DNA of 64,000 bases from an uncultured Desulfobacterales bacterium (GCA_964577615.1 CAZNZW010000004.1:11511-75510), one strand, 5' to 3'. Positions 11,281 through 56,744 are shown, numbered from the stretch's first letter. Translations and numbers: made by a program. The notes: generated by a model from the sequence alone, not told the origin.

Positions 11281-11304
11281 ATAACCGTTACATCCAAAAC
11301 AAGA

Positions 11305-16845: not shown

Positions 16846-16864
16846 CCGAAACGGACAATCAGCC

Positions 16865-19056: not shown

Positions 19057-19126
19057 CGCGGCAGGGTTTCAGACCAGAGAGTAAACAGCGCCCTTTATCG
19101 TCATTTTAAGAAACGGAAAGCACACC

Positions 19127-19951
19127 ATGGTTGATCATAACGAAAAGACATTTATCGGGAGAGTCAAAACCGCTCTGAACGTATCTGAAGCGCCTCCCCG
19201 GCTATATTCGGAAATATTTCCCGGCCGGCCCGAAGAAACCACGCAGGCGATTCTTGACCGGGTCCAGAGCCGGGATACCGCCCAGCGCCTGGCGCTGCTT
19301 GACCGGTTGAAGGAAATCGCCGAAACGATTAACCTGAACGTCATCGCCCTGCCGGATATATCCGCTGTCACTGCCGCCATTGCCGGCCTGGCCCGGGACA
19401 AACAGCCGGAATGGGGAGATCATAAGCAGCTGGCCGTCTGGAAACACCCCTTGATCGACGCGCTGGGACTGCCCGACGCCCTCGCGGATCAGAAAATTAT
19501 CGTACATGATACGGCGCTGACCGATACGGAAACGCCGGCCGACGGTCGCCGCCGGATCCGGGAGCAGATCGTCGCTGCCTATATTGGTGTCACTGCCGCC
19601 GATTACTGCGTGGCCGATTCGGCGACCCTCGTCATGAAGACGCGACCCGGCCAGGCCCGCGCCGCGTCTCTGGTACCCGTCATTCATGTGGCCGTTATTT
19701 ATCTCGATCAGGTCCTTGCCAGTCTCACCGAATTGTACGTCCGGCTGAAAGCAGACCCGGATTTTGAGAAAACCGGCATCACCAACTGCCTGACCTTTAT
19801 TTCCGGCCCCAGCAAAACCGCGGACATTGAGGTGGTGATGGTTCATGGCGCCCATGGCCCCCGGGAAGTATACCTGTTTGTCATCACCGGCGACCGGCCG
19901 GCGATTTCCCAAAGCTCCCCGACGCCAGCGCCCCTGCCCGAGAGCCGGTGA
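19127..19951 (+). CDS. lutC: Lactate utilization protein C (LUD domain)
   Basis: Position after lutAB. LUD-like C-terminal half (IGVTAADYCVADSATLVM...ISGPSKTADIE). Confidence 0.78.
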   Translation: MVDHNEKTFIGRVKTALNVSEAPPRLYSEIFPGRPEETTQAILDRVQSRDTAQRLALLDRLKEIAETINLNVIALPDISAVTAAIAGLARDKQPEWGDHKQLAVWKHPLIDALGLPDALADQKIIVHDTALTDTETPADGRRRIREQIVAAYIGVTAADYCVADSATLVMKTRPGQARAASLVPVIHVAVIYLDQVLASLTELYVRLKADPDFEKTGITNCLTFISGPSKTADIEVVMVHGAHGPREVYLFVITGDRPAISQSSPTPAPLPESR

Positions 19952-23558: not shown

Positions 23559-23641
23559 CTGTTTTCGCTTCGATCACCCTGTTCCGGTTTGTCGCCACGA
23601 GTTGGCCGGGCCGATCCGGCCCCCGGACGTTACATACTCTT

Positions 23642-24967
23642 TTACGGTTTTTGCCGCCGGGCCGACCCCGCCTGCCTTAACTGCTGCAGGGTCCGGGCGA
23701 CCCCGATCAGATCCTGTTCGCTCTTTACCGTTCCGAACAGACCGGCCTTGATTTCATCCCCGGTCAGTCCGCTCAACCGGCCCACTGTTTCCGGATCAAT
23801 CGCCGATATGCCCTTGCGTGGGGATCGCCGTGACCAATACTGCAGAACCGGTTCCCGGACCCGGGAAAGCAGCCCGGCCGCCTGGTCCAGATCCCAGTTA
23901 AACTGCCCCAGACCATCGATGTGGGCGAGGATATGCCGGCGGGTTTTATCCGGTGGATCCCGCGGCGGCCCGATCCGGTATTGATACCGCCAGATAAAAA
24001 AGAGGACCAGCCCGGCCAGGGAAAAGAGAAACCGGGGCATCCGGTGGATCAGCATTGTAAAAATACCATCCATGTTATTCGAATACAGCAGCCAGGTGTT
24101 GGGATTGTCTTTCACCAGCCAGGCCAGCAGCCAGGCCCGGCCGTTTCCGTCAATCCGGGAATTGCTGAAGATGCTGCTTGCCGCCAGAAAAGTCAGTTTA
24201 CCTTTACCGATCCGGTACTGGAGAAGATATGCGCCGTCCTGCCCGGGGACGCCGATGCGAAACAAAGGCGCCTTCTCTCCGGATTCCAGGTAGTAGCGAT
24301 TGGGGAAATCAATATCGACCTGCATCCCGTCGGTGGTAACGGTAACCGCGTCATGGGTATCCTTTTTTTTCACCGGTTTTTCTGCGGACGCATCTGTTGA
24401 CGCCGTGGATGATTTCGACGGGTGCTGGATATCCGGCGGTTTTGCTTTGGTTGGATCGGCCGGTGCGCCCGCCGGGGTGCCGGTGCCCGTTTCATCATCT
24501 CTCTTCGGTTTGGACGGGCAGCCACAGTCCGTGTCTGAATTTTGGTACCGGAGGCGCACGCCGACCGCCTGGGCAATGCCGCCCGCCGCCGTTCCGTCAT
24601 TATCCTTATCCGGGCTGACTTCTTTGGGTTGCAGGATCAGATGACCGCCCGCCGACATCCAGTCAAAGAGCGCATCCCGTTCGGTGGGTGACAGGGTGCC
24701 GGCCTGCCGGTAAATAACAATGGCGTCCCCCGCCGGCGGCAGTGTGATGAGCAGATCGCGGCCCCGATGACTTTCCGCGTGCCGGCCCAGCGACTGGAGA
24801 AAACGGGTCGCCGCCAGAAGCGGGTTCCGGTAGGCCGCCGGAGACATACCGGTATGGATCTCGACCGGCTTGCGTTCGTAGCTGCTGAGAAACCAGATCA
24901 CCGACACTCCCGCCGCCAGCGCGCCACAGAGAAAAATCAGAATGGTGCGTTTTTTATCCGGCCGCAT
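23642..24967 (-). CDS. DUF4350-like membrane-anchored protein
   Basis: The start is set at MRPDKKRTILIFL (ATG 24967); ORF-track start is 25009. LFDWMSAGGHLILQP-type segment, a low-complexity acidic/Pro linker and a C-terminal TM. The family call comes from pattern and context. Confidence 0.65.
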   Translation of the reverse strand: MRPDKKRTILIFLCGALAAGVSVIWFLSSYERKPVEIHTGMSPAAYRNPLLAATRFLQSLGRHAESHRGRDLLITLPPAGDAIVIYRQAGTLSPTERDALFDWMSAGGHLILQPKEVSPDKDNDGTAAGGIAQAVGVRLRYQNSDTDCGCPSKPKRDDETGTGTPAGAPADPTKAKPPDIQHPSKSSTASTDASAEKPVKKKDTHDAVTVTTDGMQVDIDFPNRYYLESGEKAPLFRIGVPGQDGAYLLQYRIGKGKLTFLAASSIFSNSRIDGNGRAWLLAWLVKDNPNTWLLYSNNMDGIFTMLIHRMPRFLFSLAGLVLFFIWRYQYRIGPPRDPPDKTRRHILAHIDGLGQFNWDLDQAAGLLSRVREPVLQYWSRRSPRKGISAIDPETVGRLSGLTGDEIKAGLFGTVKSEQDLIGVARTLQQLRQAGSARRQKP

Positions 24968-25763
24968 GGGCGTCCCCTTCCCCGTCATACATCTGGTCCC
25001 AGCGATCAATCAGGGTGTCGATCCGGTCCCGCCCCGGATGACGATGACCATACGCCGTATTCAGCCAGCAGGCGGTCAGATGGTTAAATAATTCGGTTTC
25101 ACCGGCCGGCCGGTGGCTGGCAACCAGCTGGCGGCATTCCATTTCCGTGGCAGCGGCCGGTACGGGCAGGCCATGGACATGGAGTATCCGGGACAATGTG
25201 GCGCGGTACAATAAAGCCAGTGCCTGGCGCGGCTTTCCGTCTGTCAGCAGCCGCCGGCAGCTGCCCGGAATATCATCGGGAAGGCTTTCCGGGGTCACCG
25301 CCAGACCGAAAAGAACCGGGGCCGGCTGCCCGCCCGCTGGCGGTTTCCCGGCCGCATTGGCAAGCCACTTTTGAATATGCGTATAACGATAAATCAGCCA
25401 GACACCGCCGCTGCCGGCCAGTATCCATAGCAGTCCTTCACAGACAGTGGCCAGCGGTCCGGTCCATTGTTTAAAAAAGGCAGCCATGGCATCCAGCGCC
25501 GACGACAACCCCTTGAGCAGACGGTTGAGCCAGGAATCCGTCTTTTTTTTCCGGATCCGTTCCCAGCGGTAAACGGTTTTTTTCTGTCCAAAATCATTCT
25601 GCATCAAGACCTTTTGAAGGGCCTGCCGGCATTGCCGCGGCGGGGGCGTCCCGGCCGCCCGGGCCGGCATCCCTGACCATCCGCACATCAGCGCCCCGAT
25701 GATGATACCGGCGATCAGATGGATGCGTCCATACCGGCGGGTTTCTGTTGATTCAACCGGCAT
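24954..25763 (-). CDS. DUF4129-like membrane protein
   Basis: C-terminal ALALLYRATLSRILHVHGLPVPAAATEMECRQLV...WLNTAYGHRHP pattern. The start is ambiguous (25763 or 25817). Confidence 0.62.
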   Translation of the reverse strand: MPVESTETRRYGRIHLIAGIIIGALMCGWSGMPARAAGTPPPRQCRQALQKVLMQNDFGQKKTVYRWERIRKKKTDSWLNRLLKGLSSALDAMAAFFKQWTGPLATVCEGLLWILAGSGGVWLIYRYTHIQKWLANAAGKPPAGGQPAPVLFGLAVTPESLPDDIPGSCRRLLTDGKPRQALALLYRATLSRILHVHGLPVPAAATEMECRQLVASHRPAGETELFNHLTACWLNTAYGHRHPGRDRIDTLIDRWDQMYDGEGDAHAAG

Positions 25764-26502
25764 GATCACCTCGATGGGCTGCGGCCCGGTCCGCCATTTT
25801 TTTAAATCCGATTTCAAGGTCCCAGGCTTCGAGGTCCACCCGCCGGGAAATATAGAGCATGAACCCCCCTGTCACGTAAAAAGGCGCAATAATCGACACG
25901 GCGGCCAGATAAGCGGCCACGTAAAACAGCGGGAACGCAAACGGCGAGTGATAGTCAACGGCCATGCGCATGCTTTCCGGAACGAGAAACAGGGCCAGCA
26001 GAATGATGGACAGGCAGATGACACCCTCAACAGCCAGACAGGCACCGGTCAGCCAGAGGCCGCCGGACTGCTTCTTACCCAGAACCCGGTGCCGTTGCCT
26101 GCGCGTTTCCCGGGTGCCCCCTTCGAGAAACCGCACGGGCATCAGAAAGGACCGTTCGGGCAGAAAGCGGTCCCGGGTAATCAGACGGAGCAGATGCGGC
26201 CCCAGAATCCAGCGCCATTTTCCAGCGACCGGACGGACGGGAAGCGTTTCACCGAATACCGCCCGGCTCAGCCAGTATAAAAGCAACGGTTCGTGGATCG
26301 GTTTGAGCCACCAGATGAGCACCACCGCCAGACGGGGATATTTCAAGGCGATCAGACATCCGATGAGCCCGGTTGGCAGGCCGGTTACCAGCCACAACCG
26401 CCAGAGCCGGCCAAACCATTTTACGGCGACCCGGCATCCCAGATCCATGGCTTCCCAGGCGGATCGGGGACGGATGACGAGGGTCACATGGTCAAGATCC
26501 AT
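25753..26502 (-). CDS. Polytopic membrane protein of unknown function
   Basis: Four or more hydrophobic helices. It overlaps both neighbouring genes by about 11 nt, which suggests operon membership. Confidence 0.6.
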   Translation of the reverse strand: MDLDHVTLVIRPRSAWEAMDLGCRVAVKWFGRLWRLWLVTGLPTGLIGCLIALKYPRLAVVLIWWLKPIHEPLLLYWLSRAVFGETLPVRPVAGKWRWILGPHLLRLITRDRFLPERSFLMPVRFLEGGTRETRRQRHRVLGKKQSGGLWLTGACLAVEGVICLSIILLALFLVPESMRMAVDYHSPFAFPLFYVAAYLAAVSIIAPFYVTGGFMLYISRRVDLEAWDLEIGFKKMADRAAAHRGDHAG

Positions 26503-27484
26503 GTTGTCTCCCGGCCAGAACGAAGTAAGCGCTTACCATCAGCCAGTTGAAAGCGGCCACAGCCAGGCGCACCCCCGGAGGAACGGCGGACGGTGACCAG
26601 AATGCCTCCACGAAGGCGGCAATGAGCAGCATAAAGGCCGCGCCCATGACGAGTTTCAGCGCCTGCGGGGCCATTGCCTTCAGCGCGCCGCGCCGCGTCT
26701 GAATACCGGGCATGATCAGCGCCCGGGCCAGGAGCAGTCCGGCGGTTCCGGAAATAACGATGGCCGTCAGCTCAAAAGCGCCATGTCCGGCCACAAAGGG
26801 CCAGAATACCCCGGCATAGGGCGCATGGGATAAATGCCCGGCCACCGCGCCCAGAAACAGGCCGTTGAACAGAAGGGACAGCAGGGTGCCCAGCCCCAGC
26901 AGCATGCCGCCGGCAAAGGTCCGGAATCCGATGGAAATATTATTGAGAATATAAAAACCGAACATGCGCACATTGGTCTCCGATGTCCGGTTCATGTCCC
27001 GGCCGGGCTTGCGGTTCTGGGGATCGTACATGTATTCGACCCGGCTGACCTGGCCCTCATCCATGATGCCGTAAATCATCACCGGATCATGATAGGTGAG
27101 ATATCCGGCCACGGCGGCCGGTACAGCAAAGATCAGCAGGGTCAGATAAAAAATCGCCCGGTGCCGCCGCAGGGTACGGGGGAAGTCCGATCCGATAAAG
27201 GCAATCGCCTTCTGCACCCATGCCCGGCGGGGTCGATATAACTGCCGGTGCCCCCTGAGTACAAACCGGTGCAGACGCGCCACCAGGGCCGGGCTGTACT
27301 GCCGGCTCCGGGCCAGCGCGTAGTGGTTGCAGATCGTTTTATACAGACCCGGAAAATCCGCCGGATTATCGGATTCGGCGTCATGATGACCGTCATTTCC
27401 GGCAGACGCTTCAAATCCGGCCAGCATCCGGTTGAATCGCTCCCACAGGGGCGAATATAATGTTTCAAACTGTTCCTGACGCAT
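26492..27484 (-). CDS. SpoIIM-like (DUF95) membrane protein
   Basis: FGFYILNNISIGFRTFAGGMLLGLGTLLSLLFNGLFLGAVAGH is typical of the stage II sporulation protein M-like family. Confidence 0.75.
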   Translation of the reverse strand: MRQEQFETLYSPLWERFNRMLAGFEASAGNDGHHDAESDNPADFPGLYKTICNHYALARSRQYSPALVARLHRFVLRGHRQLYRPRRAWVQKAIAFIGSDFPRTLRRHRAIFYLTLLIFAVPAAVAGYLTYHDPVMIYGIMDEGQVSRVEYMYDPQNRKPGRDMNRTSETNVRMFGFYILNNISIGFRTFAGGMLLGLGTLLSLLFNGLFLGAVAGHLSHAPYAGVFWPFVAGHGAFELTAIVISGTAGLLLARALIMPGIQTRRGALKAMAPQALKLVMGAAFMLLIAAFVEAFWSPSAVPPGVRLAVAAFNWLMVSAYFVLAGRQHGS

Positions 27485-27487
27485 TAT

Positions 27488-28189
27488 TTATCGGCTCCCG
27501 GAAAACCAGTTGGCAAAAGCGAGCAGGGTCTGCTCGGGCGCTTCACCGTCCATGGAAAGAAAAGAGAGCCGGCCGGCCAGTTCCCGCCGCCGCCCGGCGG
27601 ACAATGAACCGCTCCGCTCGGCAAAATCCATGATCAGGCGCTGCTCGGCAAGGGTAAACGGCCGGGGCGGCCGGCGGGCCGGATACGCCGGAATTTTCCG
27701 GCGGCCGTCTTCTGTGTCTGTGTACACCACTACGGTGCCGGCGGCCAGGTCGCCCAGGCGCTGAAATTTCCCGTTCATCACCATGGCCACCAGGCCGGTA
27801 CCATAAAACAGCGGAAAAAAATCGGCGGTCCGGAGCAGATTGCGCAGCAGCGCGGTGGACCAGTTCAGCGGGGTGCCGTCGGCCTGCATGACCTCCAGCC
27901 CCAATGCCATTTTACCTGGTGTGGCCCGTTTGTACATTTCGAAAAGCACCGGATAAAACCACTCCATCAGGAAGATGAAGATCATGACGGCCGCCGTTCC
28001 CACTCCGCCAAACAGCGTTGAAACCGAAACCATCAGAACGATGAAATAGGCCACGGCCCGGATGGCCATGTCGATGGCCCAGGCCATACCCCGGGCCACG
28101 GGGCCGGCCGGCCGTAAAACCAGGGGAATCCCCTCCGGGGTCTCGTAGTCAAAAAGGGTGTCCAGGCCGGATGAGGCGATGGCGTTCAC
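27488..28189 (-). CDS. RDD-family membrane protein
   Basis: LRPAGPVARGMAWAIDMAIRAVAYFIVL...TPGKMALGLEV RDD-domain pattern. The GTG start overlaps the upstream stop (GTGA). Confidence 0.75.
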   Translation of the reverse strand: MNAIASSGLDTLFDYETPEGIPLVLRPAGPVARGMAWAIDMAIRAVAYFIVLMVSVSTLFGGVGTAAVMIFIFLMEWFYPVLFEMYKRATPGKMALGLEVMQADGTPLNWSTALLRNLLRTADFFPLFYGTGLVAMVMNGKFQRLGDLAAGTVVVYTDTEDGRRKIPAYPARRPPRPFTLAEQRLIMDFAERSGSLSAGRRRELAGRLSFLSMDGEAPEQTLLAFANWFSGSR

Positions 28190-29433
28190 GAATAAAACAG
28201 ATCCCGGTAGCCGGTGTAGATCGACAGGCTGACCACCGATATAACCGGTACCATCACCACCATCATCACCAGAGGGAAGATAAACATGGCTGGCAGCGCG
28301 CCCTGTACGCTGAAAAAGAGCGGGACCAGAATGGCCATGGCAATGCCGGAGATGATGGTGATGCCCATGAAGAGGAGCATGAGCACCAGCCCGTAAACGG
28401 TAAACGGCCAGAAATTTTTCCAGCAGGCCGCAAAACTGAGTTTCATGGCCGGCCAGGCATCGTAACCGTTTATCGCAATCAGCGGGGTCGCAAACCAGGC
28501 CGCCATATAGAGCGGTATGGACACCCCCAGACTGACAAGAAATCCGACCACAAGCATTAATATATTTCCACTAGAAAAAGACTCGGGAGAAACCGCGCCC
28601 GTAAAGATCGACACCCCGAAAAAGAGAAAAAGAGGCGCCACGCAAACGAGTATTCCCAGGACCATCAGGAGGGCGAACAGCATCAACTGGTTTCGATTGA
28701 TGGCAAATCCGGCGAACAGATAATTGAGCTGAAAAATGTCACCGTCGTTATGCGCCTGGGCCCCCAGCATCAGCCCGCCGAAAAAAACCGGGAAAAGGAA
28801 GTATCCGATAAACGGGCCGATCAGTGGTACCAGATTGGTCAACAATCCCAGAAAATACATCAGGGCAATGGCCCCCATCCAGGCCCAGGGGCGTTCCTTC
28901 AGCATACTGTAGGCATCCATCAGCCATTGCCAGCCCTGACCGGCCCGGACTTTCCGGGGCGTACCGAAACGGGTTTTGTCTGCCTCTTCCGCGTCCAGAT
29001 CCGCCCGTGGTGCGGCATACGGGTTGGCCGATGACGCTCCGGCCGCGCCGATGTTTTCAGCAGATGGCGATACCAGGGGCGGTCCGGCCGGTTTGAGTGG
29101 TGTGTCGGACGATTTGGCCGGGGTATCGGGCGGCACCGGGGGCGGGCCAGCGGGACCGGCCGGGGCCTGACTGGCCATTTCGGCGGACGGCGCCGCCGGG
29201 GTTGGCACCAGTTCAACGACCAGGCCGGCCTGTTCCAAGTTGCGGCGGATGGTTTCCCCTGTTTTCCGGTCAACGTCTTTTTTCACGATCACCTGTTTTC
29301 CGGCGGACACCAGCTGATCGGCCTGATCCGCCGGCAGGCCAAACCGGGCCGTTAATTTTTTTGACGTGTCGCCCGGTTCACACCCTGTCCGCAGATGCCC
29401 CAGAAAGACAACCTGATAGGTAGTAGATTCCAT
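28186..29433 (-). CDS. Membrane protein: small soluble N-domain, Pro-rich linker, polytopic C-terminal domain
   Basis: The start is set at MESTTYQVVF (ATG 29433). Linker PAGPAGPPPVPPDTPAKSSDTPLKPAGPPLV, then about 6 TM beginning GQGWQWLMDAY. This is the first gene of the MoxR operon. Confidence 0.6.
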   Translation of the reverse strand: MESTTYQVVFLGHLRTGCEPGDTSKKLTARFGLPADQADQLVSAGKQVIVKKDVDRKTGETIRRNLEQAGLVVELVPTPAAPSAEMASQAPAGPAGPPPVPPDTPAKSSDTPLKPAGPPLVSPSAENIGAAGASSANPYAAPRADLDAEEADKTRFGTPRKVRAGQGWQWLMDAYSMLKERPWAWMGAIALMYFLGLLTNLVPLIGPFIGYFLFPVFFGGLMLGAQAHNDGDIFQLNYLFAGFAINRNQLMLFALLMVLGILVCVAPLFLFFGVSIFTGAVSPESFSSGNILMLVVGFLVSLGVSIPLYMAAWFATPLIAINGYDAWPAMKLSFAACWKNFWPFTVYGLVLMLLFMGITIISGIAMAILVPLFFSVQGALPAMFIFPLVMMVVMVPVISVVSLSIYTGYRDLFYS

Positions 29434-29566
29434 TTTTTCATCCTTTTTCAGATTCCGGTTGCTTTTTTCAGGTAAGTATTTCCGTTTCCGTGCCAGACCT
29501 TTATTAAAACGTTTCACTGGAAACAGTCAACAATCTATAATCGTAAAAGATACAACAGGCTCTGGT

Positions 29567-43059: not shown

Positions 43060-43701
43060 TTACCGGCCGTCACCAGTCGCTTGAATGCTCAACCGGATCG
43101 CCTGACCGGGCCGCCCGGCTTCCAGCAGCGCCGCGAGGGTCACTTTCTTACCGTCCAGCATCAGCGAACTTTCCGATCCGGTCAAAACCGGCGCGGCAAG
43201 ATTTAGAAATACCCGCACGGCCGAGACGTCCACATCGACCCCTTTTTCCAGAAAAGCCGGCCCGAGTTCCCGGGCCACAACGTTAAAAAGCCGGATCGTC
43301 ACCGTTCCCAGTGTGGATTCGGCTGGTGAATCGCCGCTTCCGGTACCCGTTGCCTGACAGGAAATACGTTGTCTCAGCTTGGCATAAAAGCCGCCCTTGC
43401 GCATGGTGGCCCCCACCAGGCCGGGCATGGCGGCGGACAGGGCCACAATGTCACCATCAGAAACCACCGTTTTTTCAACATCATCCACCGGGCTGCTGTT
43501 TAAAAACAAGGTCTGTACCCGGTTTTTCAGATAATCCGCATCGATCCCGAGTTGACCGCACAACAGACGGGAAAGAGATCCACCCACCCGGGCCTGTACT
43601 GAAAATCCTTTGGACAGCAGCGCCTGCAGTCCGGGCAAAACTGTTTCCCGCGAGCGGATGTAAATTCCAGATTCTTTTGTATCCATGTTTGATAAAGTCA
43701 T
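43060..43701 (-). CDS. Hypothetical protein (213 aa), last gene of the corrinoid/MtmB-like operon
   Basis: AAGGAGG SD upstream of ATG 43701. I recognise no motif. Confidence 0.55.
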   Translation of the reverse strand: MTLSNMDTKESGIYIRSRETVLPGLQALLSKGFSVQARVGGSLSRLLCGQLGIDADYLKNRVQTLFLNSSPVDDVEKTVVSDGDIVALSAAMPGLVGATMRKGGFYAKLRQRISCQATGTGSGDSPAESTLGTVTIRLFNVVARELGPAFLEKGVDVDVSAVRVFLNLAAPVLTGSESSLMLDGKKVTLAALLEAGRPGQAIRLSIQATGDGR

Positions 43702-43744: not shown

Positions 43745-44236
43745 TCACAAATCGTACAGGGTATCATCCCGCCGGGGGGGAAGTCTGCGCCGGGCCGTCT
43801 TACTTTTCCGATCCGGCAGCAGAAACGGATCTTCCGTTTCAAGCAGATCCCCCATCTGCGCTTCGATTTCATCCGGATCCTGACCGTCTTTCATCCGTTG
43901 AAGCGCTTCCTGCATCCCCGGGCCCAGTTCCATGCCGGTGATATCGGTCAGTTTTTCCATCAGTTTTGCGGCCTGGCGGGGATCGTCTTCGTTGATCTGT
44001 CCCGCCTCGGTGGCCAGCATCTGCATGGCTTTTTCCATCTTGCGCTCGTCAATGGGAAAATCGTCCACGGCATCTTCTTCCTGTTTACGGCCGCCGATGG
44101 CAAAAAGGGAGATTTCACGTGTCAGGGACCGGGTTTTACATTGGGGGCACTTGGGGCGTTTGGTCGTGTTGATGGTCTTTGAGAAAAAATTGAATATCGT
44201 ATGGCATGCATCACAATAAAATTCGTAAATCGGCAT
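43745..44236 (-). CDS. FmdB-family zinc-ribbon protein with an acidic tail
   Basis: MPIYEFYCDACHTIF...CPQCK (CxxC...CxxC), typical of the FmdB-type putative regulatory family. Confidence 0.8.
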   Translation of the reverse strand: MPIYEFYCDACHTIFNFFSKTINTTKRPKCPQCKTRSLTREISLFAIGGRKQEEDAVDDFPIDERKMEKAMQMLATEAGQINEDDPRQAAKLMEKLTDITGMELGPGMQEALQRMKDGQDPDEIEAQMGDLLETEDPFLLPDRKSKTARRRLPPRRDDTLYDL

Positions 44237-44376: not shown

Positions 44377-45759
44377 CTAAAAAGGAAACACCACGCCCAT
44401 TGCGGCAATGTCGTCTTTCACCTTTCGATACATGTCATAATGCTCCTGGCTGGGAAGCGCTTTGGCAACATCATAGCATTCAGGGTATTCCTTGCCCATG
44501 GACGCGGTCGCCGCCTGATCTTCGTATTTGGCCAGCAGTTTCAGGGCAATCTCATTGGCTGCCTCGCGGGTCATCCCCATCTGGGCCACGGCATGGCCGA
44601 CCTCGACCCCCAGGCGGGCTTCCATGGGCGTGGCACGGTTCCGGTATTTATTGCGGGTGGAGGCCATCTCCCATAAATGCCAGCCACTGACCGTACTGAC
44701 CAGGGCATGGCAGGCCGTTTCATAAAAAAGCATCTCGGTCATGGGGCCGGCATTGGCAAAACCGTTACTGGTGTACAGCAGCTTGCTGTTACGCGCCATG
44801 GCCTGACCGGCCATGGCAATGGGCCACAGCAATTCCCGGGTGGTATTGGATCCATAATTGAGATGAAAGGGAAAATGCTGATTGAACATGGCCCCGTGAA
44901 TCAGAAGCCCCTTGAGACTGTAAGCCACCAGAGTAACGGCCACGCCTTCGGAGCCGCCGCACCAGCCGCCGTAAATGGGGCCGGTCAGATTGCCGGTGTA
45001 ACAGCCATATTGGGCATAATGAACCGAGCGGTTGAGAAGGGTGTCGGCGGTTTTAAATTCGGTTAACGATCCCACCAGGCGGGCGTCGGTGGTGCGGACG
45101 CCCCATTCGTCGTTGGAAACTGCAATCTGGCCGGCATCATGCTCGGCCGTCCCCACAGCCACAAAAAAGGTGCCCGGGCGACCCAGTTGCCGGGCAGCGG
45201 CCCGCATATTGTAAATATGCTGGATGCAGCCGTTGATTTCAGTCGGCCCGCCCGACTCGATCAACTGCCCGATGGCATCTTCCAGAATCGGGGCGCAGAA
45301 GCCGTCGAGCAACGGCTCTTTCAGGTAGGCGGCGCACATGGAATGATGCAGATGTTCGTCAACGGTAATGTCCGGGCTGTAAATACAGAAAGGCGGCTCG
45401 GTATCCTCCACCTGCCGATGTTTCCACAGCCTGGCATCTTTGCCTTCACCCACCCAGTACCGGTCTTTGGCAACATACAGCGCCTCTTTGATCTCCGCGT
45501 CGGTCACCTGAATGATGCGGTGAGAATCGATATTATAGACGCCGACTTCCCGGAAAAGGTCCCAGCCCGCCTGCCAGATGCGATCCGCCATGGCATCGTC
45601 GGCGGGCAGCGGCGTTTCCGGATCGTATTTTATCTCGTATTTTTTGATAATTTTCTTGAGCGTCGGGGTAAACAATCTGGGCAGAAAATCGTCTTCGTCA
45701 ATGTGGGGGCCGGTCTTGGACCGGTCCATCATTTCCCAGATGCGATAGGCTGTGGTCAT
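44377..45759 (-). CDS. MtmB-family (monomethylamine methyltransferase-like) protein without pyrrolysine
   Basis: 460 aa, collinear (from memory of archaeal MtmB) with GRPG..., GSNTTRE, AGPMTEM, TPMEARLGVEV and the C-terminal GKEYPECYDV...MGVVFPF. There is no in-frame TAG. Confidence 0.75.
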   Translation of the reverse strand: MTTAYRIWEMMDRSKTGPHIDEDDFLPRLFTPTLKKIIKKYEIKYDPETPLPADDAMADRIWQAGWDLFREVGVYNIDSHRIIQVTDAEIKEALYVAKDRYWVGEGKDARLWKHRQVEDTEPPFCIYSPDITVDEHLHHSMCAAYLKEPLLDGFCAPILEDAIGQLIESGGPTEINGCIQHIYNMRAAARQLGRPGTFFVAVGTAEHDAGQIAVSNDEWGVRTTDARLVGSLTEFKTADTLLNRSVHYAQYGCYTGNLTGPIYGGWCGGSEGVAVTLVAYSLKGLLIHGAMFNQHFPFHLNYGSNTTRELLWPIAMAGQAMARNSKLLYTSNGFANAGPMTEMLFYETACHALVSTVSGWHLWEMASTRNKYRNRATPMEARLGVEVGHAVAQMGMTREAANEIALKLLAKYEDQAATASMGKEYPECYDVAKALPSQEHYDMYRKVKDDIAAMGVVFPF

Positions 45760-45877
45760 GGTGATTCCTCCCGTCGGTTATCAGTCTCCCGCATACAGAC
45801 CATCCTCAGGTCATCTTTGAATAAATCAATACCTGAATACCGTCATTGAAATTTGGCTGGTTCCGTTATCCCCAGTT

Positions 45878-46516
45878 CTATTTATCCAACAGGTCCGCCA
45901 TTTTGGTCGCCGCGCAATTGGCATCTTCGCAATAAAGATCGGCCCCGATCATATCCGCCCACATCTGGGAAGTCGGCGCCCCCCCGATGACGACCTTGTA
46001 CTTGTCCCTCAGGCCCTTATCCTTTAAAAACTCGATAATCTCTTTCTGGCGCGGTATCGTGGTGGTCATCAAGGACGATGCGCCGATAAAATCCGCCCCC
46101 ATCTCCTCGGCCGCCTTGATAAAATCCAGGGAGTCCACATCGTAGCCGAGATCTTTGACCTCGAATCCATTGGTTTCCAGCATCAGCTTGACAATATTTT
46201 TTCCGATTTCATGCAGATCGCCCTTTACCACACCGATAACCACCTTGCCCCTGGAAAAATCCCCTTTCGTGTCTTTCAGCTCGGGCTTGACGATATCCAC
46301 CACAGCGGTCAGGGCTTCCCCGGCCATCATGACTTCGGGCAAAAAAATTTCCAGGTCGGCAAACAGGTTGCCCACCCGCTCCATGGTTTTGGTCAGGCTG
46401 TCCAGGATTTCCAGCGGATCGGCCCCCTGGTCCAGAAGCGCCCGGGCGGCGGATTCACTGGCTTCTGTTTCACCGGTTTCAACCAGTTTATTCAATTCTT
46501 CCAATGACATGGACAT
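45878..46516 (-). CDS. Cobalamin-binding corrinoid protein (MtmC/MttC/MtgC-like)
   Basis: N-terminal B12 cap helix bundle plus a Rossmann domain with DxHxxG (GDLHEIGKNIV) and SSLMTTT. Confidence 0.9.
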   Translation of the reverse strand: MSMSLEELNKLVETGETEASESAARALLDQGADPLEILDSLTKTMERVGNLFADLEIFLPEVMMAGEALTAVVDIVKPELKDTKGDFSRGKVVIGVVKGDLHEIGKNIVKLMLETNGFEVKDLGYDVDSLDFIKAAEEMGADFIGASSLMTTTIPRQKEIIEFLKDKGLRDKYKVVIGGAPTSQMWADMIGADLYCEDANCAATKMADLLDK

Positions 46517-46616
46517 CCTCCTTGAAAAAAAGGCAACAATGCGTCATCTTATCGATTCCTGACGCGGCCATCCCGGCCACGATTCATGATCATTTTTAAT
46601 ATATTAATAATATTTT

Positions 46617-46647
46617 TGTCAATCCATTACTGATATTTATATTGACA
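46617..46647. promoter_or_regulatory. Candidate GntR operator TGTCAAT-N17-ATTGACA
   Basis: Perfect 7-bp arms (46617-46623 / 46641-46647) in the AT-rich divergent region between the corrinoid gene and gntR. Confidence 0.4.
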
Positions 46648-46678
46648 TTTTAGATGGATCGGTTAATAGGTTAAACCC

Positions 46679-47311
46679 ATGAATAAAGAAGAGGCCTACG
46701 AAAATCTGCGCATGCGCATTATTACCAATGATGTCGCGCCCGGAGAAATCCTCAACGAGAAGGATCTCATGGCCCGGCTCGGTATCGGCCGGTCCCCGTT
46801 GCGGGAAGTCCTTTTCCGGCTGCAGGAGGAGAACCTGATCAATCCCCTGCCCCGGCTGGGCTATATGGTGACTCCCCTGGATATCTCGGATGTGCGCGAA
46901 CTGGTGGAGCTGCGCCGGGAGCTGGAGGGGTTTGCCGGATATCTGGCGGCCCAGCGCATCACCGACAGTCAACTCGAAGACCTGCGCGCCCTCATCCACC
47001 AGGCCGAAACAGACGCTCCTCAAAAGCATGAATTCACCAGCATTTCGGAATATTACGACACCCGGTTTCATGATCTGCTTTACCAGGCCGCCCACAACCG
47101 GAAACTGGCTAAAACCTTACGGGGGCTGCATATCGACATGCTCCGGATCTGGTTTCATGTGGGACTCGATGCCATTGGATTTTCACCCGAGGTTCAAAAT
47201 TTTCACACTGTTCTGGCCGCCCTGGAACAAAAAGATGCCGAAAAGACCCGAAAGGCCATGGAAGCCCACGTGGATTTTTACGCGGCCCAGGTCAAGGATA
47301 AATTTCTATAA
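46679..47311 (+). CDS. GntR-family regulator (FadR/FCD type)
   Basis: NEKDLMARLGIGRSPLREVLFRLQEENLI wHTH plus an all-helical FCD-like C-terminal domain. Confidence 0.88.
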   Translation: MNKEEAYENLRMRIITNDVAPGEILNEKDLMARLGIGRSPLREVLFRLQEENLINPLPRLGYMVTPLDISDVRELVELRRELEGFAGYLAAQRITDSQLEDLRALIHQAETDAPQKHEFTSISEYYDTRFHDLLYQAAHNRKLAKTLRGLHIDMLRIWFHVGLDAIGFSPEVQNFHTVLAALEQKDAEKTRKAMEAHVDFYAAQVKDKFL

Positions 47312-48840: not shown

Positions 48841-49722
48841 TCAATCGTTGCGCGCCATATAGGTCTCCAGCCACTGGACGCCGAAGGAAAGCGTCAGGCA
48901 CATGACAAGATACATGGCGGTAATGGTGAGCCACACCTCGATGGTGACATGGGTGGCGGCCATCACCTGCATCCCCTGAAAAGTAAGTTCCTGGATCGAA
49001 ATAATCGACACAATGGCCGAGTATTTGATGGTATTGATGAACTCATTGGCCAATGGCGGCAGCACCCGTTTGAGCGCCTGGGGCATAACGATGTCCCGCA
49101 TCTGCTGCCGCCAGGACATCCCCAGGGCATAGGACGCTTCCCATTGACCTTTTTCAATGGATTGAATCCCGGCACGCACAATTTCGGTGATATAAGCGCC
49201 TTGAAAGACGGCCACTGTAACGACACCGGAAATAAAAGCCGTAAACAGATCCGGCGTCGAGAACAACCAAGCGAGGATTTTCTGGGTGCCGGGATCCCGG
49301 CTCCGGATAAACGATTCGACCCCCAGAATGGGCATGATTTGAGAGCTGACAAAAAAATAAAAGATAAAAATCAGCACCAGCGGGGGAACATTGCGGATCA
49401 ATTCCACATAAGTGCGGCCCACCAGGCGGTTGAACAGGCGGGGCGTTGTTCGCAATACGCCGGCCACCAGTCCGAAAACCGTGGCCAGCAAGGTGGCCCA
49501 CACGCTCAAACGGATGGTGGTAAACAGCCCCTGCAGCAGGACATTGGCTTTCCAGCGACCTTCGGCTTCATCAAAAAACCAGAGGTATTGGGGAATAATG
49601 GACCAGTTCCACTTGTAGTTGAGTTTGACGGCCAGCCGATAGACAATGAAAGCCGCCAGCGCCAATAGCAGTGCGGTCACAACCACATCCAGTCGGGTTA
49701 TACGTGTTTTGCGATGGTGCAA
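48841..49722 (-). CDS. ABC transporter permease (polar amino acid type)
   Basis: EAA-loop-containing HisM/GlnP-like permease with a long N-terminal extension, paralogous to 51578..52402. Confidence 0.85.
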   Translation of the reverse strand: MHHRKTRITRLDVVVTALLLALAAFIVYRLAVKLNYKWNWSIIPQYLWFFDEAEGRWKANVLLQGLFTTIRLSVWATLLATVFGLVAGVLRTTPRLFNRLVGRTYVELIRNVPPLVLIFIFYFFVSSQIMPILGVESFIRSRDPGTQKILAWLFSTPDLFTAFISGVVTVAVFQGAYITEIVRAGIQSIEKGQWEASYALGMSWRQQMRDIVMPQALKRVLPPLANEFINTIKYSAIVSIISIQELTFQGMQVMAATHVTIEVWLTITAMYLVMCLTLSFGVQWLETYMARND

Positions 49723-49823
49723 AAAAGCCCTCTGCGCTATACCTGTTTATCCAGTTCAGCCAATCTGTCCACCAGGCCCGTCTCTACCCCTGGAAGGGGC
49801 AGAGTCCGGCCCGATAGGATCCA

Positions 49824-50654
49824 TTATTCGACCAGGCTGGCCCAGTCCCTTGTTCCAAACCAATAGTAATGCCTGTCCTGGAGCCATCCCTGGTCATTTT
49901 TTGTCTGGATCCAGCTGTTAAAAAAAACCAGGGTATCAAAATCACCTTTTCGCAGGGCAAAACCGATGGGTTCCTTGGTGAAATTATCCCGCATGGGCAT
50001 AAACAGGGTGTCCGCGTACTTGACGGCTTCATACGCGGGCCGGGGGGCAGATCCGACCACGGCATGCACATTGCCGTTACGCAGTTCCTGATAAGCCTGG
50101 GCCTCATCTTCAAAAAGCCGCAATTTGGCTTTGGGCATATATTTTTTGGCCGCCATTACGGCGGTGGTGCCCAGCTTGACCGCCAGTTGAACATCCGGTT
50201 TGTTGAAATCATCCAGCGACTTAAATCCGGCTGCTTTTTTCCTGTGCGCCACCATGGACATCCCCGAGTAATCATAGGGAATGGTAAAATTCACCTTCAG
50301 AGCCCGTTTGGTCTGAATCCCCATGCCGCCGATAATCACATCAAATTTGCCGGTCAGCAGCGCCGGAATAATTCCGGCCCACTTGGTGGGAATAAATTCG
50401 ACTTTTACGCCCATGTCTTCGGCCAGTTGACGGGCCACATCAATTTCAAACCCGACAAACTCGCCGGTTTTGCTTTTCATGGCCCAGGGCACGAATGTAT
50501 CCATCCCCACCCGTATAACGCCCCGTTTCAGGATCTGTTCCAACGTGCTTTCTTTGGACAGCTTCATCTGCAGCTCACCGGCCGTGACACTGGCAGATAA
50601 ACAAAAACCCAGCGTCAAAATCAATGCGATGATTACCGTTGCGTTTCGTTTCAT
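49824..50654 (-). CDS. ABC transporter periplasmic substrate-binding protein (family 3)
   Basis: Signal peptide, then GVIRVGMDTFVPWAMKSKTGEFVGFEIDVARQLAEDMGVKVEFIPTKW. Confidence 0.88.
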   Translation of the reverse strand: MKRNATVIIALILTLGFCLSASVTAGELQMKLSKESTLEQILKRGVIRVGMDTFVPWAMKSKTGEFVGFEIDVARQLAEDMGVKVEFIPTKWAGIIPALLTGKFDVIIGGMGIQTKRALKVNFTIPYDYSGMSMVAHRKKAAGFKSLDDFNKPDVQLAVKLGTTAVMAAKKYMPKAKLRLFEDEAQAYQELRNGNVHAVVGSAPRPAYEAVKYADTLFMPMRDNFTKEPIGFALRKGDFDTLVFFNSWIQTKNDQGWLQDRHYYWFGTRDWASLVE

Positions 50655-50795
50655 TGTTTTTCCTCCTTTAAATAGATATTTCCGGTTAAAATAAAGATCT
50701 TACGATCACGGCGGTTCCTGTTTAACATGATAAAGGCAACTCCGGGGCCCCGAACCAACATCCGGAGACCCGTCCCAAAACCGGATATCCGGTAT

Positions 50796-51548
50796 TTATA
50801 AAATCTGGCTTAAAAACAGCCGGGTACGATCTTCGGTCGGCGCAGTAAAAAAATGTTCCACGGTACCGGCCTCTATGATTTTGCCATCTTCCATGAAAAT
50901 AACCCGGTCACTCACCTCACGGGCAAACCCCATCTCGTGCGTCACGCAGATCATGGTCATCCCCTCACGGGCCAGTGCTTTCATCACATCCAGCACTTCA
51001 CCGATCATTTCAGGGTCAAGCGCACTGGTCGCCTCATCAAAAAGCATCACCTTGGGCATCATGGCCAGGGCGCGGGCAATGGCCACCCGCTGCTGCTGAC
51101 CGCCGGAGAGCTGGTTGGGGTAGTTATCGGCCTTATCGGCAATACCGACTTTTTCCAAAAGGTCCATGGACATGGCCCGGGCCTGCTCCTTTGTTTTTTT
51201 ACGGACGCGCCGCTGGGCCAGGCTGATATTTTCCAATACCGTCATGTGGGGAAACAGGTTGAACTGCTGAAAGACCATCCCCACCTCTTTCCGGATTTCA
51301 AGCCTGTTCTTTTTATGGTCATCCAGAACAATACCGTCAATGGTAATGGCACCGCTGTCGATCTCCTCCAGGCCATTCAGGCAGCGCAGAAATGTTGATT
51401 TTCCCGAGCCGGACGGGCCGATGACGACCACCACTTCACCGCGATGGATCCGGGTGGAAAAATCGACGAGCGCCTTGACACCGTTGGGAAACGTTTTGCT
51501 GATATGTTCAACAACGATGATATAATCTCCCGAATCCGTAACGGGCAT
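50796..51548 (-). CDS. ABC transporter ATP-binding protein
   Basis: Walker [10 protein letters not shown], signature LSGGQQQRV, Walker [13 protein letters not shown]. Confidence 0.93.
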
Positions 51549-51577
51549 GTAAAATCTCCAATTTCTCTGTTTCCGGA

Positions 51578-52402
51578 TCAGCCAACCACTTTGAAACGGT
51601 GTTCCATGTAATTGACGATGACAGACAATGTCGCCGTGACAACCAGATACATCCCCGCCACGGTAAACCAGAGTTCAAAGGTTAAAAAGGTTTCCGCAAT
51701 CACGGCCTGGGCCTGCATGGTTAAATCGTAGATGGCAATGGTGCTGACCAGCGCGGAGTCCTTGATGAGCGAGATGGCCTGGCTGGTCAGGGGCGGCAAT
51801 ACCCGTCGAATCGCCTGGGGTAAAATAATATAAAAATAGGTGTCAAATCCGCTCAACCCCAGGCTATGAGCCGCCTCCCACTGCCCCCGGCGGATAGAAA
51901 CAATCCCTGCCCGGAATATTTCGGAAGTATAAGCGCCTTCAAACAGGCTCAGGGCAAGAACGGCCGATGTCATCCGGTTGATGCCCAGCACCGGCCCCAG
52001 AACAAAATAGATAAAAAACAGTTGGATCAAAAGCGGGGTGTTGCGAACCACCTCAAGATAAACCCGGGCAATGGCTTGAGCGACAAACGAATGTGACAGC
52101 CGAAAAAGAGCGGTACCCAGGCCGATAATAAATGCCAGTACCAGGCTGATTCCCGAAATTCGCAAGGTCACCATTAACCCCTCCCACAAAGGACCGGCAT
52201 AGTAGCCGGTTTCATCGTGGGTGAAGATATATTTGGGAATCTGGTACCATTGCCAGTTATAGCCCAATTTTTCAGTACCGGCGGAGAAAAACCAGACGAC
52301 AGCAAGCACCAGGAGGGTGAACTGGGCAACATCGAAAAGAGGTGACCGGTAAATGCGGCGCCAGAGCGGTTTACGCTGTGATGGATGAGATGCGCCCATC
52401 AA
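51578..52402 (-). CDS. ABC transporter permease (polar amino acid type)
   Basis: Paralogue of 48841..49722 ([14 protein letters not shown]... versus NYKWNWSIIPQYLW...). Confidence 0.85.
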
Positions 52403-55361: not shown

Positions 55362-56744
55362 CTAATATGTCATGCCTCGTTCCACCTCGCCGATGACAGT
55401 ATCGATAATATCCAGGGCCTGGTCAATCTCATCAGGGCTGATGATCAGGGCCGGCCGCAGGGTGATGATGTTGCCCTCGATCAGCTTAAAGGCCAGGCCT
55501 TTTTCCATGCATTTATACATGATTATTTCTGCCTCTTGCTCGGCCCTTTCCCGGGTGCGGGGATCTTTGACAAGATCAATGCCGATATGCAGACCTAGGC
55601 CGGCAACGTGGCCGATGAGCCGATGCGCCTCCTTCATCTTGTTTAAGCGTTCCATCGCATGATCACCTAACCGGCGGGCATGTTCGCAAAGGTTATTTTC
55701 ATTTATATACTTGATTTCCGCCAGAGCCGCCACCGAGCAAAGGGCATTTTTTTCGTGGGTGTAATGCCCGATCGATCGATGCGGACAGATATCATAGCGT
55801 TCGTGGGTGATCATCCCGGCGAAAGGAAGCAATCCGCCGCCCATGGATTTACCCAGTACGAGAATGTCGGGGGTGAGGAAATGCTCGCAGGCAAACATTT
55901 TTCCGGTGCGGCCAAATCCTTCGATGATTTCGTCAAATATCAATAACGCATCGTATGCTTCACAGAGTGCTTTTACACCCTCCCAGTAATATTTGCTGGG
56001 AATCACCGGATTGGCTGAAATCGGCTCTCCGATAACAGCTGCCACACCGGGCTCTTTTTTTAGAATCAATTCTATTTGTCGAAGACATTCGGCATCCACA
56101 TCCGCTTCGTTTTTAAACCCCCAGGGATTTCGGTAATAGTTGGGGAACTCAACATGCAGGGCACCGGGACTCATGGGTCCCATCCCCCCTTTGAAATGTG
56201 CTTCACCGCCAATACTGGCCGCGGCAAATCCGGCACCATGAAAGGCGTCCCAGAACGAGATGGTTTTAAATTTTCCCGTCACCTGTTTGGCCAGGGACAG
56301 GGCCATCTCAATCGCCTCGGAGCCGCCGGGACAAAACAGGGATTTACATAAATCGCCTGGCGTGATTTCTGCCAGGGCTTTGGCCAGGCGCACGGCGGTC
56401 TGGTTCGTGTATCGTCGCGGGCAAAACGTGAGCTCATTATCGAGATGCTGTTTAACGGCCGCGATGATTTCCGGATTATTGAACCCCGCATTATGGACGC
56501 CGTTACCATGCATATCAATATATTGCTTACCATCCATATCTTCGATGTAAGCGCCATGTGCCCTGGAAATGACATTCAATACCGGCGTGGACAGGCTTTG
56601 GTGCAGAAAATACCGACTATCCTCTTTGAAAATTTTTCTGGCGCCGGGGGAAAGGTTTTGCTCCCAATATTTTTTCCGATTGGCCGTGGTGTTGACATCG
56701 CCCTGCTCACGGCCCGTCTGTTTCGGGTCAGTTTTCGAGTTCAT
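55362..56744 (-). CDS. Class III (omega-type) PLP-dependent aminotransferase
   Basis: FCPGGSEAIE, LIFDEIIEGFGRTGKMFACEHF, LVLGKSMGGG (PLP Lys). Confidence 0.9.
   Translation of the reverse strand: MNSKTDPKQTGREQGDVNTTANRKKYWEQNLSPGARKIFKEDSRYFLHQSLSTPVLNVISRAHGAYIEDMDGKQYIDMHGNGVHNAGFNNPEIIAAVKQHLDNELTFCPRRYTNQTAVRLAKALAEITPGDLCKSLFCPGGSEAIEMALSLAKQVTGKFKTISFWDAFHGAGFAAASIGGEAHFKGGMGPMSPGALHVEFPNYYRNPWGFKNEADVDAECLRQIELILKKEPGVAAVIGEPISANPVIPSKYYWEGVKALCEAYDALLIFDEIIEGFGRTGKMFACEHFLTPDILVLGKSMGGGLLPFAGMITHERYDICPHRSIGHYTHEKNALCSVAALAEIKYINENNLCEHARRLGDHAMERLNKMKEAHRLIGHVAGLGLHIGIDLVKDPRTRERAEQEAEIIMYKCMEKGLAFKLIEGNIITLRPALIISPDEIDQALDIIDTVIGEVERGMTY

Follow-up and report, generated by a model that had tools for sequence, protein, structure and literature searches.

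We examined a 64,000-nucleotide stretch of DNA from an uncultured Desulfobacterales bacterium (GCA_964577615.1, CAZNZW010000004.1:11511-75510; hereafter, the window), which encodes a homologue of the monomethylamine methyltransferase MtmB that lacks pyrrolysine (Pyl). The MtmB-like gene follows a corrinoid-protein gene and lies near genes for a second methyltransferase, of the MttB family, an amino-acid-type ATP-binding cassette (ABC) transporter and a molybdenum (Mo) enzyme (Table 1). An initial annotation of this DNA had recognized the family, the lack of Pyl, the corrinoid partner and the bacterial origin, all of which hold; the MttB-like, transporter and Mo-enzyme genes had been overlooked. 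The MtmB-like protein appears best read as the MT1, or substrate-specific methyltransferase, within a bacterial system for corrinoid-dependent methyl transfer.

Table 1 Features of the MtmB-like locus, with positions counted from the first letter of the window (aa, amino acids; ORF, open reading frame; AF2, AlphaFold2; bisPGD, bis-pyranopterin guanine dinucleotide)
Feature	Coordinates	Strand	Basis
MtmB-like Pyl-free methyltransferase (putative MT1), 460 aa	44377..45759	-	ORF call, PF05369, PDB 1L2Q, AF2 + Foldseek
Val200 codon GTG, aligned with Pyl202 of MtmB	45160..45162	-	Alignment and codon check
Cognate corrinoid protein, 212 aa (B12-binding_2 cap + B12-binding Rossmann domain)	45878..46516	-	Pfam, NCBIfam
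DxHxxG (DLHEIG) cobalt-ligand motif, residue 100 of the corrinoid protein	46202..46219	-	Sequence inspection
Divergent A+T-rich control region, between corrinoid/MtmB-like and GntR/MttB-like genes	46517..46678	.	Promoter-like sites
GntR/FCD transcriptional regulator	46679..47311	+	Pfam GntR + FCD
Pyl-free MttB-family methyltransferase, 490 aa	47324..48796	+	PF06253 full length, E 1.1e-95
Polar-amino-acid-type ABC transporter, four genes	48841..52402	-	Pfam, NCBIfam
ABC permease	51578..52402	-	Pfam, NCBIfam
ABC ATPase	50796..51548	-	Pfam, NCBIfam
ABC binding protein	49824..50654	-	Pfam, NCBIfam
ABC permease	48841..49722	-	Pfam, NCBIfam
4Fe-4S dicluster ferredoxin-like protein (DmsB/PadI-like), 164 aa	52621..53115	+	ORF, NCBIfam
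Cytoplasmic Mo/W-bisPGD oxidoreductase, N-terminal 4Fe-4S domain, 689 aa	53112..55181	+	Pfam

An MtmB homologue without pyrrolysine

Both ORFs proposed in the initial annotation, encoding proteins of 460 and 212 aa, were recovered with the same boundaries. The Pfam profile for MtmB (PF05369) covers the 460-aa protein end to end, with residues 7–455 matching profile positions 3–449 of 450 (E = 3.6e-87) and a score of 293.5 bits against a gathering cut-off of 25; the profile search assigned no other family. M. barkeri MtmB1 (PDB 1L2Q/1NTH) aligns with residues 5–458 (E = 1.8e-47), so the homology is not limited to the C terminus. All of the shared motifs that had been quoted are present in this alignment: GRPG, GSNTTRE/GSTNTRE, AGPMTEM/AGPCTEM, TPMEAR/TGMEAR and GKEYPECYDV..GVVF. 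An AF2 model built from 47 sequences (predicted local distance difference test (pLDDT) score of 94.2; predicted template modelling (TM) score of 0.93) was compared with solved structures in Foldseek. It matches 1L2Q/1NTH with a TM score of 0.95 and a root mean square deviation of 1.4 Å across 454 columns at 27% identity, and the second-ranked structures are MttB/MtgB barrels, with TM scores of ~0.5. The proposed collinearity with archaeal MtmB is thus borne out over the full length of the protein.

The catalytic residue of MtmB is replaced. In the alignment with M. barkeri MtmB, Pyl202, the 'X' in GRPGMGVX, pairs with V200 in GRPGTFFV of the MtmB-like protein; this residue is encoded by GTG, and the ORF contains no in-frame TAG. 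No pyl genes or transfer RNA genes were found within the 64-kb window. The ORF ends in TAG (44377..44379, − strand), the codon read as Pyl in Pyl decoders, as would be expected if TAG is a normal stop codon here, although that is not thereby proven. Among 120 database homologues listed at 73–90% identity, 111 are exactly 460 aa long; when these were combined with the query, the Pyl-equivalent position was V in 110 and I in 2 of the 112 orthologues. A sequencing error that masks a TAG is therefore ruled out. By sequence and fold, the protein belongs to the MtmB family, yet it lacks pyrrolysine, the defining feature of MtmB proper (EC 2.1.1.248). With Val in this place, the enzyme should be unable to activate monomethylamine in the way that MtmB does, and its substrate is almost certainly not monomethylamine, in agreement with the different methyl donor that had been predicted.

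Across the clade, 128 of the 460 positions are invariant. V200 closes strand 198–200 of the AF2 model and is followed directly by the clade-invariant motif A201-V-G-T-A-E206-H207-D208-x-G-Q211, which sits on the catalytic face of the barrel. A 'TAE' motif occurs at the same place in the nearest paralogue clades. The position of E206-H207-D208 after the Pyl-equivalent strand would suit hydrogen bonding to a protonated amine.

The corrinoid protein and the control region

The dedicated corrinoid partner that had been assigned to the MtmB-like protein was confirmed by its two B12 domains (PF02607 and PF02310) and its DLHEIG motif. Its best NCBIfam matches are the methyltransferase cognate corrinoid protein model (199.8 bits, against a cut-off of 215.3), MtbC and MtgC. 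The corrinoid gene lies upstream of the MtmB-like gene on the same strand, across a 118-bp gap in which no promoter-like or terminator-like site was found, and this arrangement is conserved in the orthologous loci described below: 58 of 64 loci contain a corrinoid homologue, and its gene is directly upstream of the MtmB-like gene in nearly all those with upstream sequence. Co-transcription of the two genes, which had been taken as given, is therefore plausible. Shine–Dalgarno-like sequences precede both genes. The divergent control region contains promoter-like sites at 46616-46643 (+) and 46674-46647 (−), which are consensus matches only.

Neighbouring genes

The GntR/FCD regulator gene, on the far side of the control region, is kept at this position in 12 orthologous loci. 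Twelve base pairs past it begins the MttB-like gene, which thus lies ~0.8 kb from the corrinoid/MtmB-like pair, behind a divergent regulator. Its ORF is uninterrupted and has Val opposite Pyl334 of M. barkeri MttB (7XCL). The glycine-betaine-binding residues of MtgB are Y97, R312, H348 and F356 (PMC13080624); these align with T104, W319, H354 and G362 of the MttB-like protein, so that one of the four is kept. With the other three replaced, glycine betaine was rejected as the substrate of the MttB-like enzyme.

The binding protein of the ABC transporter shares 68% identity with PDB 9E2B, the structure of a Desulfonauticus sp. solute binding protein in complex with L-tryptophan; AncCDT-1 and the Wolinella binding protein 3K4U are further relatives. 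It belongs to a very large family, with 7,471 database proteins at E <= 1e-40. The expectation that 9E2B comes from a homologous methyltransferase cluster was rejected, as its gene sits in a plain permease/binding-protein/permease operon beside type IV pilin-like genes, without methyltransferases (L068–L070). The structure shows only what kind of ligand this transporter lineage can bind, and no paper citing 9E2B was found. An AF2 model of the binding protein from its single sequence was poor (pLDDT 42.5).

The ORF of the Mo enzyme overlaps that of the ferredoxin-like protein (53112 versus 53115), which is its putative electron-transfer partner and whose family was found in 17 loci. No NCBIfam equivalog was matched by the Mo enzyme. 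Its best PDB match is acetylene hydratase (2E7Z), and it is 28–30% identical to the corresponding modules of the ergothioneine synthase MES; the scores are 208–218 bits for MES, 227 for acetylene hydratase and 218 for FdhF.

Distribution of the clade

One genome per species was taken in a scan that yielded 63 loci, and ORFs were called in all of them before being matched or clustered. Orthologues of the MtmB-like protein (74–95% identity) are encoded in 61 loci, and the other two, from Dehalococcoidaceae, encode distant homologues (37–38%). The carriers of the clade include Desulfobacterales, Desulfobulbaceae, Desulfosarcina, Desulfococcaceae and the Olavius 'Delta 1' symbiont, together with metagenome-assembled genomes (MAGs) of Spirochaetaceae, Gemmatimonadota, Myxococcota and Anaerolineae. 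Closest to the window is locus L005, from a Deltaproteobacteria MAG, with 95% aa identity, 85% nucleotide identity over 8.6 kb and synteny on both sides. Searched against a library clustered at 50% identity, the MtmB-like protein matches 992 clusters at E <= 1e-3. The nearest full-length cluster representative, from an Aminicenantes cluster, is 52% identical, and the other full-length representatives among the matches listed are at most 37% identical. The nearest paralogue clades adjoin aminotransferases, a tautomerase and a 2-hydroxyacid dehydrogenase.

In a Desulfobacterales genome (L001/L022 5499..9039, CP070697.1), a second, paralogous trio lies directly beside the orthologous pair, with identities of 37% for the MtmB-like, 44% for the corrinoid and 34% for the MttB-like protein; this trio suggests that MttB-like/MtmB-like pairs are a recurrent module. 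In an uncultured Desulfobacteraceae (L015 19361..21379, − strand), a few kilobases from the orthologous cluster, a single TAG divides the gene of an MttB paralogue, 39–41% identical to the MttB-like protein of the window, into two in-frame ORFs, the signature of a Pyl-encoding mttB; carriers of the Pyl-free clade can thus apparently be Pyl decoders. The Olavius Delta1 symbiont carries pyl genes, and non-Pyl MtmB homologues have been noted earlier in Olavius symbionts (PMC1976440).

A conserved gene cluster

Several neighbours of the MtmB-like gene recur with it. Homologues of the MttB-like protein occur in ~32 loci, comprising orthologues that are 56–85% identical and more distant paralogues. 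The MttB-like gene is usually without a corrinoid gene of its own, and in most loci there is one corrinoid gene for two MT1s. Orthologues of the Mo enzyme are present in ~25 loci, in one operon with either the MtmB-like gene or hutUH, and the polar-amino-acid ABC transporter accompanies the cluster in ~22. The orthologous loci also encode the remaining parts of a methyl-transfer system: MtaA/CmuA-family URO-D proteins, the second methyltransferase (MT2), in 26; a Met_synt_B12-like protein in 18; the reductive activase RACo in 12; a PadH-like NADH reductase in 11; and CobW. In loci of the Desulfobulbaceae type, the co-directional order is regulator, corrinoid, MtmB-like, Met_synt_B12-like, reductase, ferredoxin, Mo enzyme, transporter and MT2, with RACo and the MttB-like gene divergent.

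Genes of histidine utilization (Hut) adjoin the cluster in seven species-level loci (L003, L012, L015, L018, L027, L032 and L033) and in several distinct arrangements; in L012, L027, L032 and L033, hutU, hutH, ferredoxin and Mo-enzyme genes run in one direction. By our own estimate, given a 20-kb view of genomes of several megabases, a single hut operon would adjoin the cluster by chance in well under 1% of loci. The adjoining proteins exceed the equivalog cut-offs for HutH (667 bits; cut-off 539), HutU (435; 375) and HutI (455; 298). Against the model for thiourocanate hydratase, the adjacent HutU scores 305 bits with a cut-off of 930, which marks it as a true urocanase. Moreover, a GntR/UTRA regulator with HutC as its best match is present in 19 loci, and in nine loci the corrinoid gene is closely preceded by, or stands one or two genes away from, a gene for a HisC equivalog (329 bits; cut-off 277). 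Several of these HisC loci are from spirochaetes and are without a close (at least 56% identical) MttB-like orthologue, two of them carrying a distant 40% homologue. Between the HisC-like and corrinoid genes of L011, L014 and L055 lies a gene for a 565-aa flavin adenine dinucleotide (FAD) protein of the fumarate reductase/AprA flavoprotein type (cluster c28; for example, L014 3940..5649), which has no equivalog match.

Other genes in the window

Downstream of the MtmB-like gene, a FmdB-family zinc-ribbon protein (43745..44236, −) and a 213-aa protein without a family match (43060..43701, −) are conserved only in the closest relative, L005. Beyond the Mo-enzyme gene, a 460-aa ORF of the class-III aminotransferase fold (55362..56744, −) was weighed as a possible pathway component and set aside, because it scores above the equivalog cut-off for PbfA (651 bits; cut-off 525) and is not conserved with the cluster. 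PbfA is (R)-1-hydroxy-2-aminoethylphosphonate ammonia-lyase, which points to phosphonate catabolism.

Elsewhere in the window, two tandem acetyl-CoA-synthetase-like genes (4059..8198, −) are followed by a sodium:solute symporter and a regulator of the cNMP/CBS/DUF294 nucleotidyltransferase type (9523..13826, +), and the 8–10 kb stretch between these two groups is low in G+C (0.44). A weak reductive-dehalogenase-like Fe–S protein (13966..15114) stands beside a lactate-utilization-type set (near 13966..19951) with a GlcD-like FAD oxidase, a CCG-domain protein and two LUD-domain proteins. Successive genes for MoxR AAA ATPase, DUF58, DUF4350, DUF4129, SpoIIM-like and RDD proteins (21238..29517, −) together resemble a MoxR-associated membrane-protein cluster.

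A histidine betaine as candidate substrate

The substrate is most likely an N-methylated amino acid that would be imported by the adjoining transporter. An amino-acid-type substrate is suggested because a polar-amino-acid transporter recurs with the cluster and because its binding protein resembles one solved with L-tryptophan. A histidine skeleton, in turn, is suggested by the adjoining HutH, HutU and HutI, the HutC-like regulator and HisC; hercynine (N-alpha-trimethylhistidine) appears to fit this Hut linkage best. Our tentative proposal, which concerns the substrate, the order of the steps and the part played by the Mo enzyme, is that the cluster encodes a pathway that turns a histidine betaine (hercynine or ergothioneine) into histidine by successive, corrinoid-dependent N-demethylation steps.

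In such a pathway, the ABC transporter would import the methylated amino acid and the MttB-like enzyme would take the first methyl group off the quaternary amine of hercynine. The MtmB-like enzyme would then take the remaining methyl group or groups from N,N-dimethyl-histidine, N-methyl-histidine or both, leaving a free alpha-amine. The methylated amine would be bound at the top of the triosephosphate isomerase (TIM) barrel of the MtmB-like enzyme and its methyl group passed to the Co(I) corrinoid protein, which both enzymes would load. From there, an MtaA-like MT2, encoded outside the window, would carry the methyl group onward, presumably to tetrahydrofolate, with a RACo-type activase repairing oxidized cobalt, and the resulting histidine would enter the Hut pathway.

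This division of labour is suggested by several observations. The MttB-like enzyme is placed at the first, quaternary methyl group because the characterized non-Pyl members of the MttB family all use quaternary amines (PMC13044021). A non-quaternary step is assigned to the MtmB-like enzyme because HutH and HisC need a free alpha-amine and because the spirochaete loci combine HisC, a corrinoid protein and the MtmB-like protein without a close MttB-like orthologue. The same assignment is suggested by the aminotransferases that adjoin the nearest paralogue clades and by the invariant E206-H207-D208, which would suit a protonated amine.

Hercynine itself would need no redox enzyme, yet an NADH-linked Mo enzyme is conserved with the cluster, which suggests a modified form of the substrate such as ergothioneine. 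A relative of acetylene hydratase, the metallopterin module of MES, catalyses a reversible sulfur exchange between ergothioneine and hercynine (PMC9516567). By analogy, and as speculation, the ferredoxin/Mo-oxidoreductase pair may prepare the modified substrate, for example by reductive desulfurization of ergothioneine to hercynine; any sulfur would have to go at such an early step, because the adjacent HutU is a true urocanase. A complete anaerobic ergothioneine/hercynine pathway would comprise NADH-linked desulfurization by the Mo/W-pterin enzyme, removal of all three N-alpha-methyl groups onto one corrinoid protein by the MttB-like and MtmB-like enzymes, transfer of the one-carbon (C1) units to tetrahydrofolate and delivery of histidine to Hut. 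In this full form, we regard the proposal as doubtful.

A number of points weigh against a histidine betaine. Hut genes adjoin just 7 of the 63 loci and none lies within the 64-kb window, which contains neither an MT2 nor a reductive activase. HisC-family enzymes are generic, and the closest solved binding protein holds tryptophan, with no histidine derivative, and is encoded in an operon without methyltransferases. The Mo enzyme resembles acetylene hydratase and FdhF at least as much as it does MES. Moreover, the only characterized non-Pyl MtmB homologue, MtqB, acts on quaternary amines, so the roles of the MttB-like and MtmB-like enzymes could be reversed.

Alternative substrates

A different methylated aromatic amino acid, namely hypaphorine (tryptophan betaine) or N-methyl-tryptophan, -phenylalanine or -tyrosine, would call for the same chemistry and the same division of steps with the MttB-like enzyme. 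The tryptophan in 9E2B speaks for such a substrate, as does a paralogue clade at 36% identity that adjoins a tautomerase, Aminotran_1_2 and Ldh_2, a typical aryl-pyruvate/aryl-lactate set, and the HisC family transaminates aromatic amino acids too. However, the catabolic genes that adjoin the cluster are HutH, HutU and HutI equivalogs, without tryptophanase or aromatic-acid enzymes, and the regulator found in 19 loci is HutC-like, which makes this alternative unlikely.

The MtmB-like protein might instead be a bacterial counterpart of MtqB, that is, an enzyme for quaternary amines of the tetramethylammonium or choline type, or one that takes the first methyl group from a betaine, with the MttB-like enzyme doing something else. 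MtqB is the only non-Pyl MtmB homologue of proven function; bacterial members of its branch, and MtqB-like genes in foraminiferal symbionts, have been reported (PMC13044021), and in our cluster, as in mtqCB, the MtmB-like gene follows the corrinoid gene. We nonetheless consider such a role quite unlikely. The transporter is of the amino-acid rather than the choline/betaine type, and MtqB is said to branch near the Pyl-containing MtmBs, whereas the MtmB-like protein has 27% identity to MtmB and, among the full-length cluster representatives listed, does not exceed 37% with any but its own and the one at 52%. The MtqB pocket is described as rich in sulfur and aromatic residues; here, Glu-His-Asp is invariant beside the Pyl site.

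Marine Desulfobacterota demethylate glycine betaine, and the cluster could complete this catabolism, with the MttB-like enzyme making dimethylglycine and the MtmB-like enzyme demethylating dimethylglycine, sarcosine or both. Two MT1s on one corrinoid protein would fit stepwise demethylation, and the enzymes of the dimethylglycine step in anaerobes are unresolved (PMC9768040). Against this stand the single glycine-betaine-binding residue of MtgB that the MttB-like protein keeps and the absence of a BCCT or OpuA-type transporter from the cluster; the Hut genes, the HutC-like regulator and the Mo enzyme would be left unexplained as well. On balance, glycine betaine is improbable.

A methyl donor that is not an amine, such as a methylthiol, dimethylsulfoniopropionate, a methoxylated aromatic compound or a halomethane, has a precedent in 'Ca. 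Formimonas warabiya', in which a non-Pyl protein of the MtmB superfamily is the most strongly induced protein on dichloromethane (PMC9768040), and the family of the Mo enzyme includes S-oxide reductases. Such a donor is very improbable here: the transporter, the regulators and the flanking catabolic genes all point to an amino acid, and the partner MT1 comes from the MttB family, whose characterized non-Pyl members all act on quaternary amines (PMC13044021). Finally, although databases name the protein monomethylamine:corrinoid methyltransferase and MtqB is weakly active on monomethylamine (11 nmol/min/mg; PMC13044021), it is scarcely credible that the clade still uses that substrate without pyrrolysine, given Val or Ile at the Pyl site throughout, 27% identity to MtmB and a cluster that encodes an amino-acid importer and a second MT1 with no ammonium or methylamine transporter.

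Significance

A Pyl-free MtmB-like protein is, as a bare observation, known biology; what the conserved cluster adds is a hypothesis, sharp and open to testing, about the substrate of a large orphan family. The non-Pyl homologues of MtmB are very numerous, as the 992 matching clusters show, and a single member, MtqB, has a known substrate. The present clade shows strong purifying selection and is abundant among marine sulfate reducers and related bacteria, one of them the symbiont of a gutless worm; its gene context is informative enough to give a short list of candidate substrates. In the literature examined, we found no described system in which a single corrinoid protein serves both an MttB-like and an MtmB-like MT1, nor one in which this pairing stands alongside a Mo enzyme and hut genes. 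In the library searched, no paper tied hercynine or ergothioneine to corrinoid methyltransferases, and nothing relevant to their corrinoid-, cobalamin-, MttB- or molybdenum-dependent catabolism emerged beyond the MES paper. A substrate of the histidine-betaine type would be new for the MtmB family.

If a histidine betaine is indeed the substrate, the cluster would reveal an anaerobic consumption of ergothioneine or hercynine and would show the MttB and MtmB families dividing a stepwise N-demethylation between them. It would also show that a non-quaternary N-methyl group can be activated without pyrrolysine, which raises a mechanistic question. Were the complete pathway to operate, the clade would provide the first demonstrated case of a Pyl-independent corrinoid methyltransferase that uses a secondary or tertiary N-methyl amino acid. 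If the substrate is a different one, the cluster would still mark a methylotrophic substrate that feeds C1 units into sulfate reduction in sediments.

Comparison with known systems

With M. barkeri MtmB, the MtmB-like protein shares a full-length PF05369 domain, the TIM barrel, the sequence motifs and an adjoining gene for a DxHxxG corrinoid protein. It differs in its low overall identity, in the replacement of Pyl202 by Val200, with no UAG, and in a bacterial context that includes a second, MttB-like MT1 as well as an amino-acid ABC transporter and a Mo enzyme. The methyl acceptor expected here is tetrahydrofolate, whereas that of MtmB is coenzyme M.

Like MES of Caldithrix abyssi, which acts on trimethylhistidine/ergothioneine (PMC9516567), the Mo enzyme is a cytoplasmic bis(molybdopterin guanine dinucleotide) protein that falls into the acetylene-hydratase-like group, has an Fe4S4 motif at its N terminus and carries a Cys in the stretch that aligns with the metal ligand. 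In contrast to MES, to which it is 28–30% identical, it is without a fused cysteine desulfurase and has ferredoxin-like and NADH-reductase-like partners.

The view in the initial annotation that no non-Pyl member of the MtmB family has an assigned substrate is outdated. MtqB of Methanococcoides methylutens Q3c (ACT9XH_RS04775, NZ_CP199767.1), a non-Pyl MtmB homologue, methylated cob(I)alamin with tetramethylammonium (37 nmol/min/mg) and choline (42 nmol/min/mg), was weak with monomethylamine and did not use trimethylamine or glycine betaine (PMC13044021, March 2026). Like the MtmB-like protein, it is encoded directly after a corrinoid protein, and it provides a precedent for a loss of Pyl that goes with a larger methylated amine. 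By description, the two are set apart: MtqB is archaeal, feeds coenzyme M by way of MtbA, lies near the Pyl-containing MtmBs and has a pocket rich in sulfur and aromatic residues, whereas the present clade is bacterial, has the invariant Glu-His-Asp and belongs to an amino-acid- and histidine-linked cluster. The tree in the MtqB study holds 1,061 MtmB-family sequences (PMC13044021). The MtmB-like protein does not demonstrably belong to the MtqB clade. No Methanococcoides name was found among the 20 cluster representatives looked up. A profile search seeded with MtmB-proximal representatives returned 16 proteins, and no MtqC-like gene was found near P0271, a member of the P0249 cluster, which is among the representatives closest to Pyl-containing MtmB.

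The non-Pyl MttB superfamily, which includes MtgB, MtpB, MtcB and MtyB and is represented, for example, in Desulfitobacterium hafniense and Eubacterium limosum, belongs to a fold family unrelated to MtmB at the sequence level. The MttB-like gene of the window is a member of this superfamily, albeit without the glycine-betaine-binding set of MtgB. These systems likewise combine an MT1, a corrinoid protein, an MT2 and an activase; several MT1s can share a corrinoid protein, Pyl is replaced and the substrate is an amino-acid betaine. By analogy, the MtmB-like protein would work in the manner of the non-Pyl MT1s of these quaternary-amine systems.

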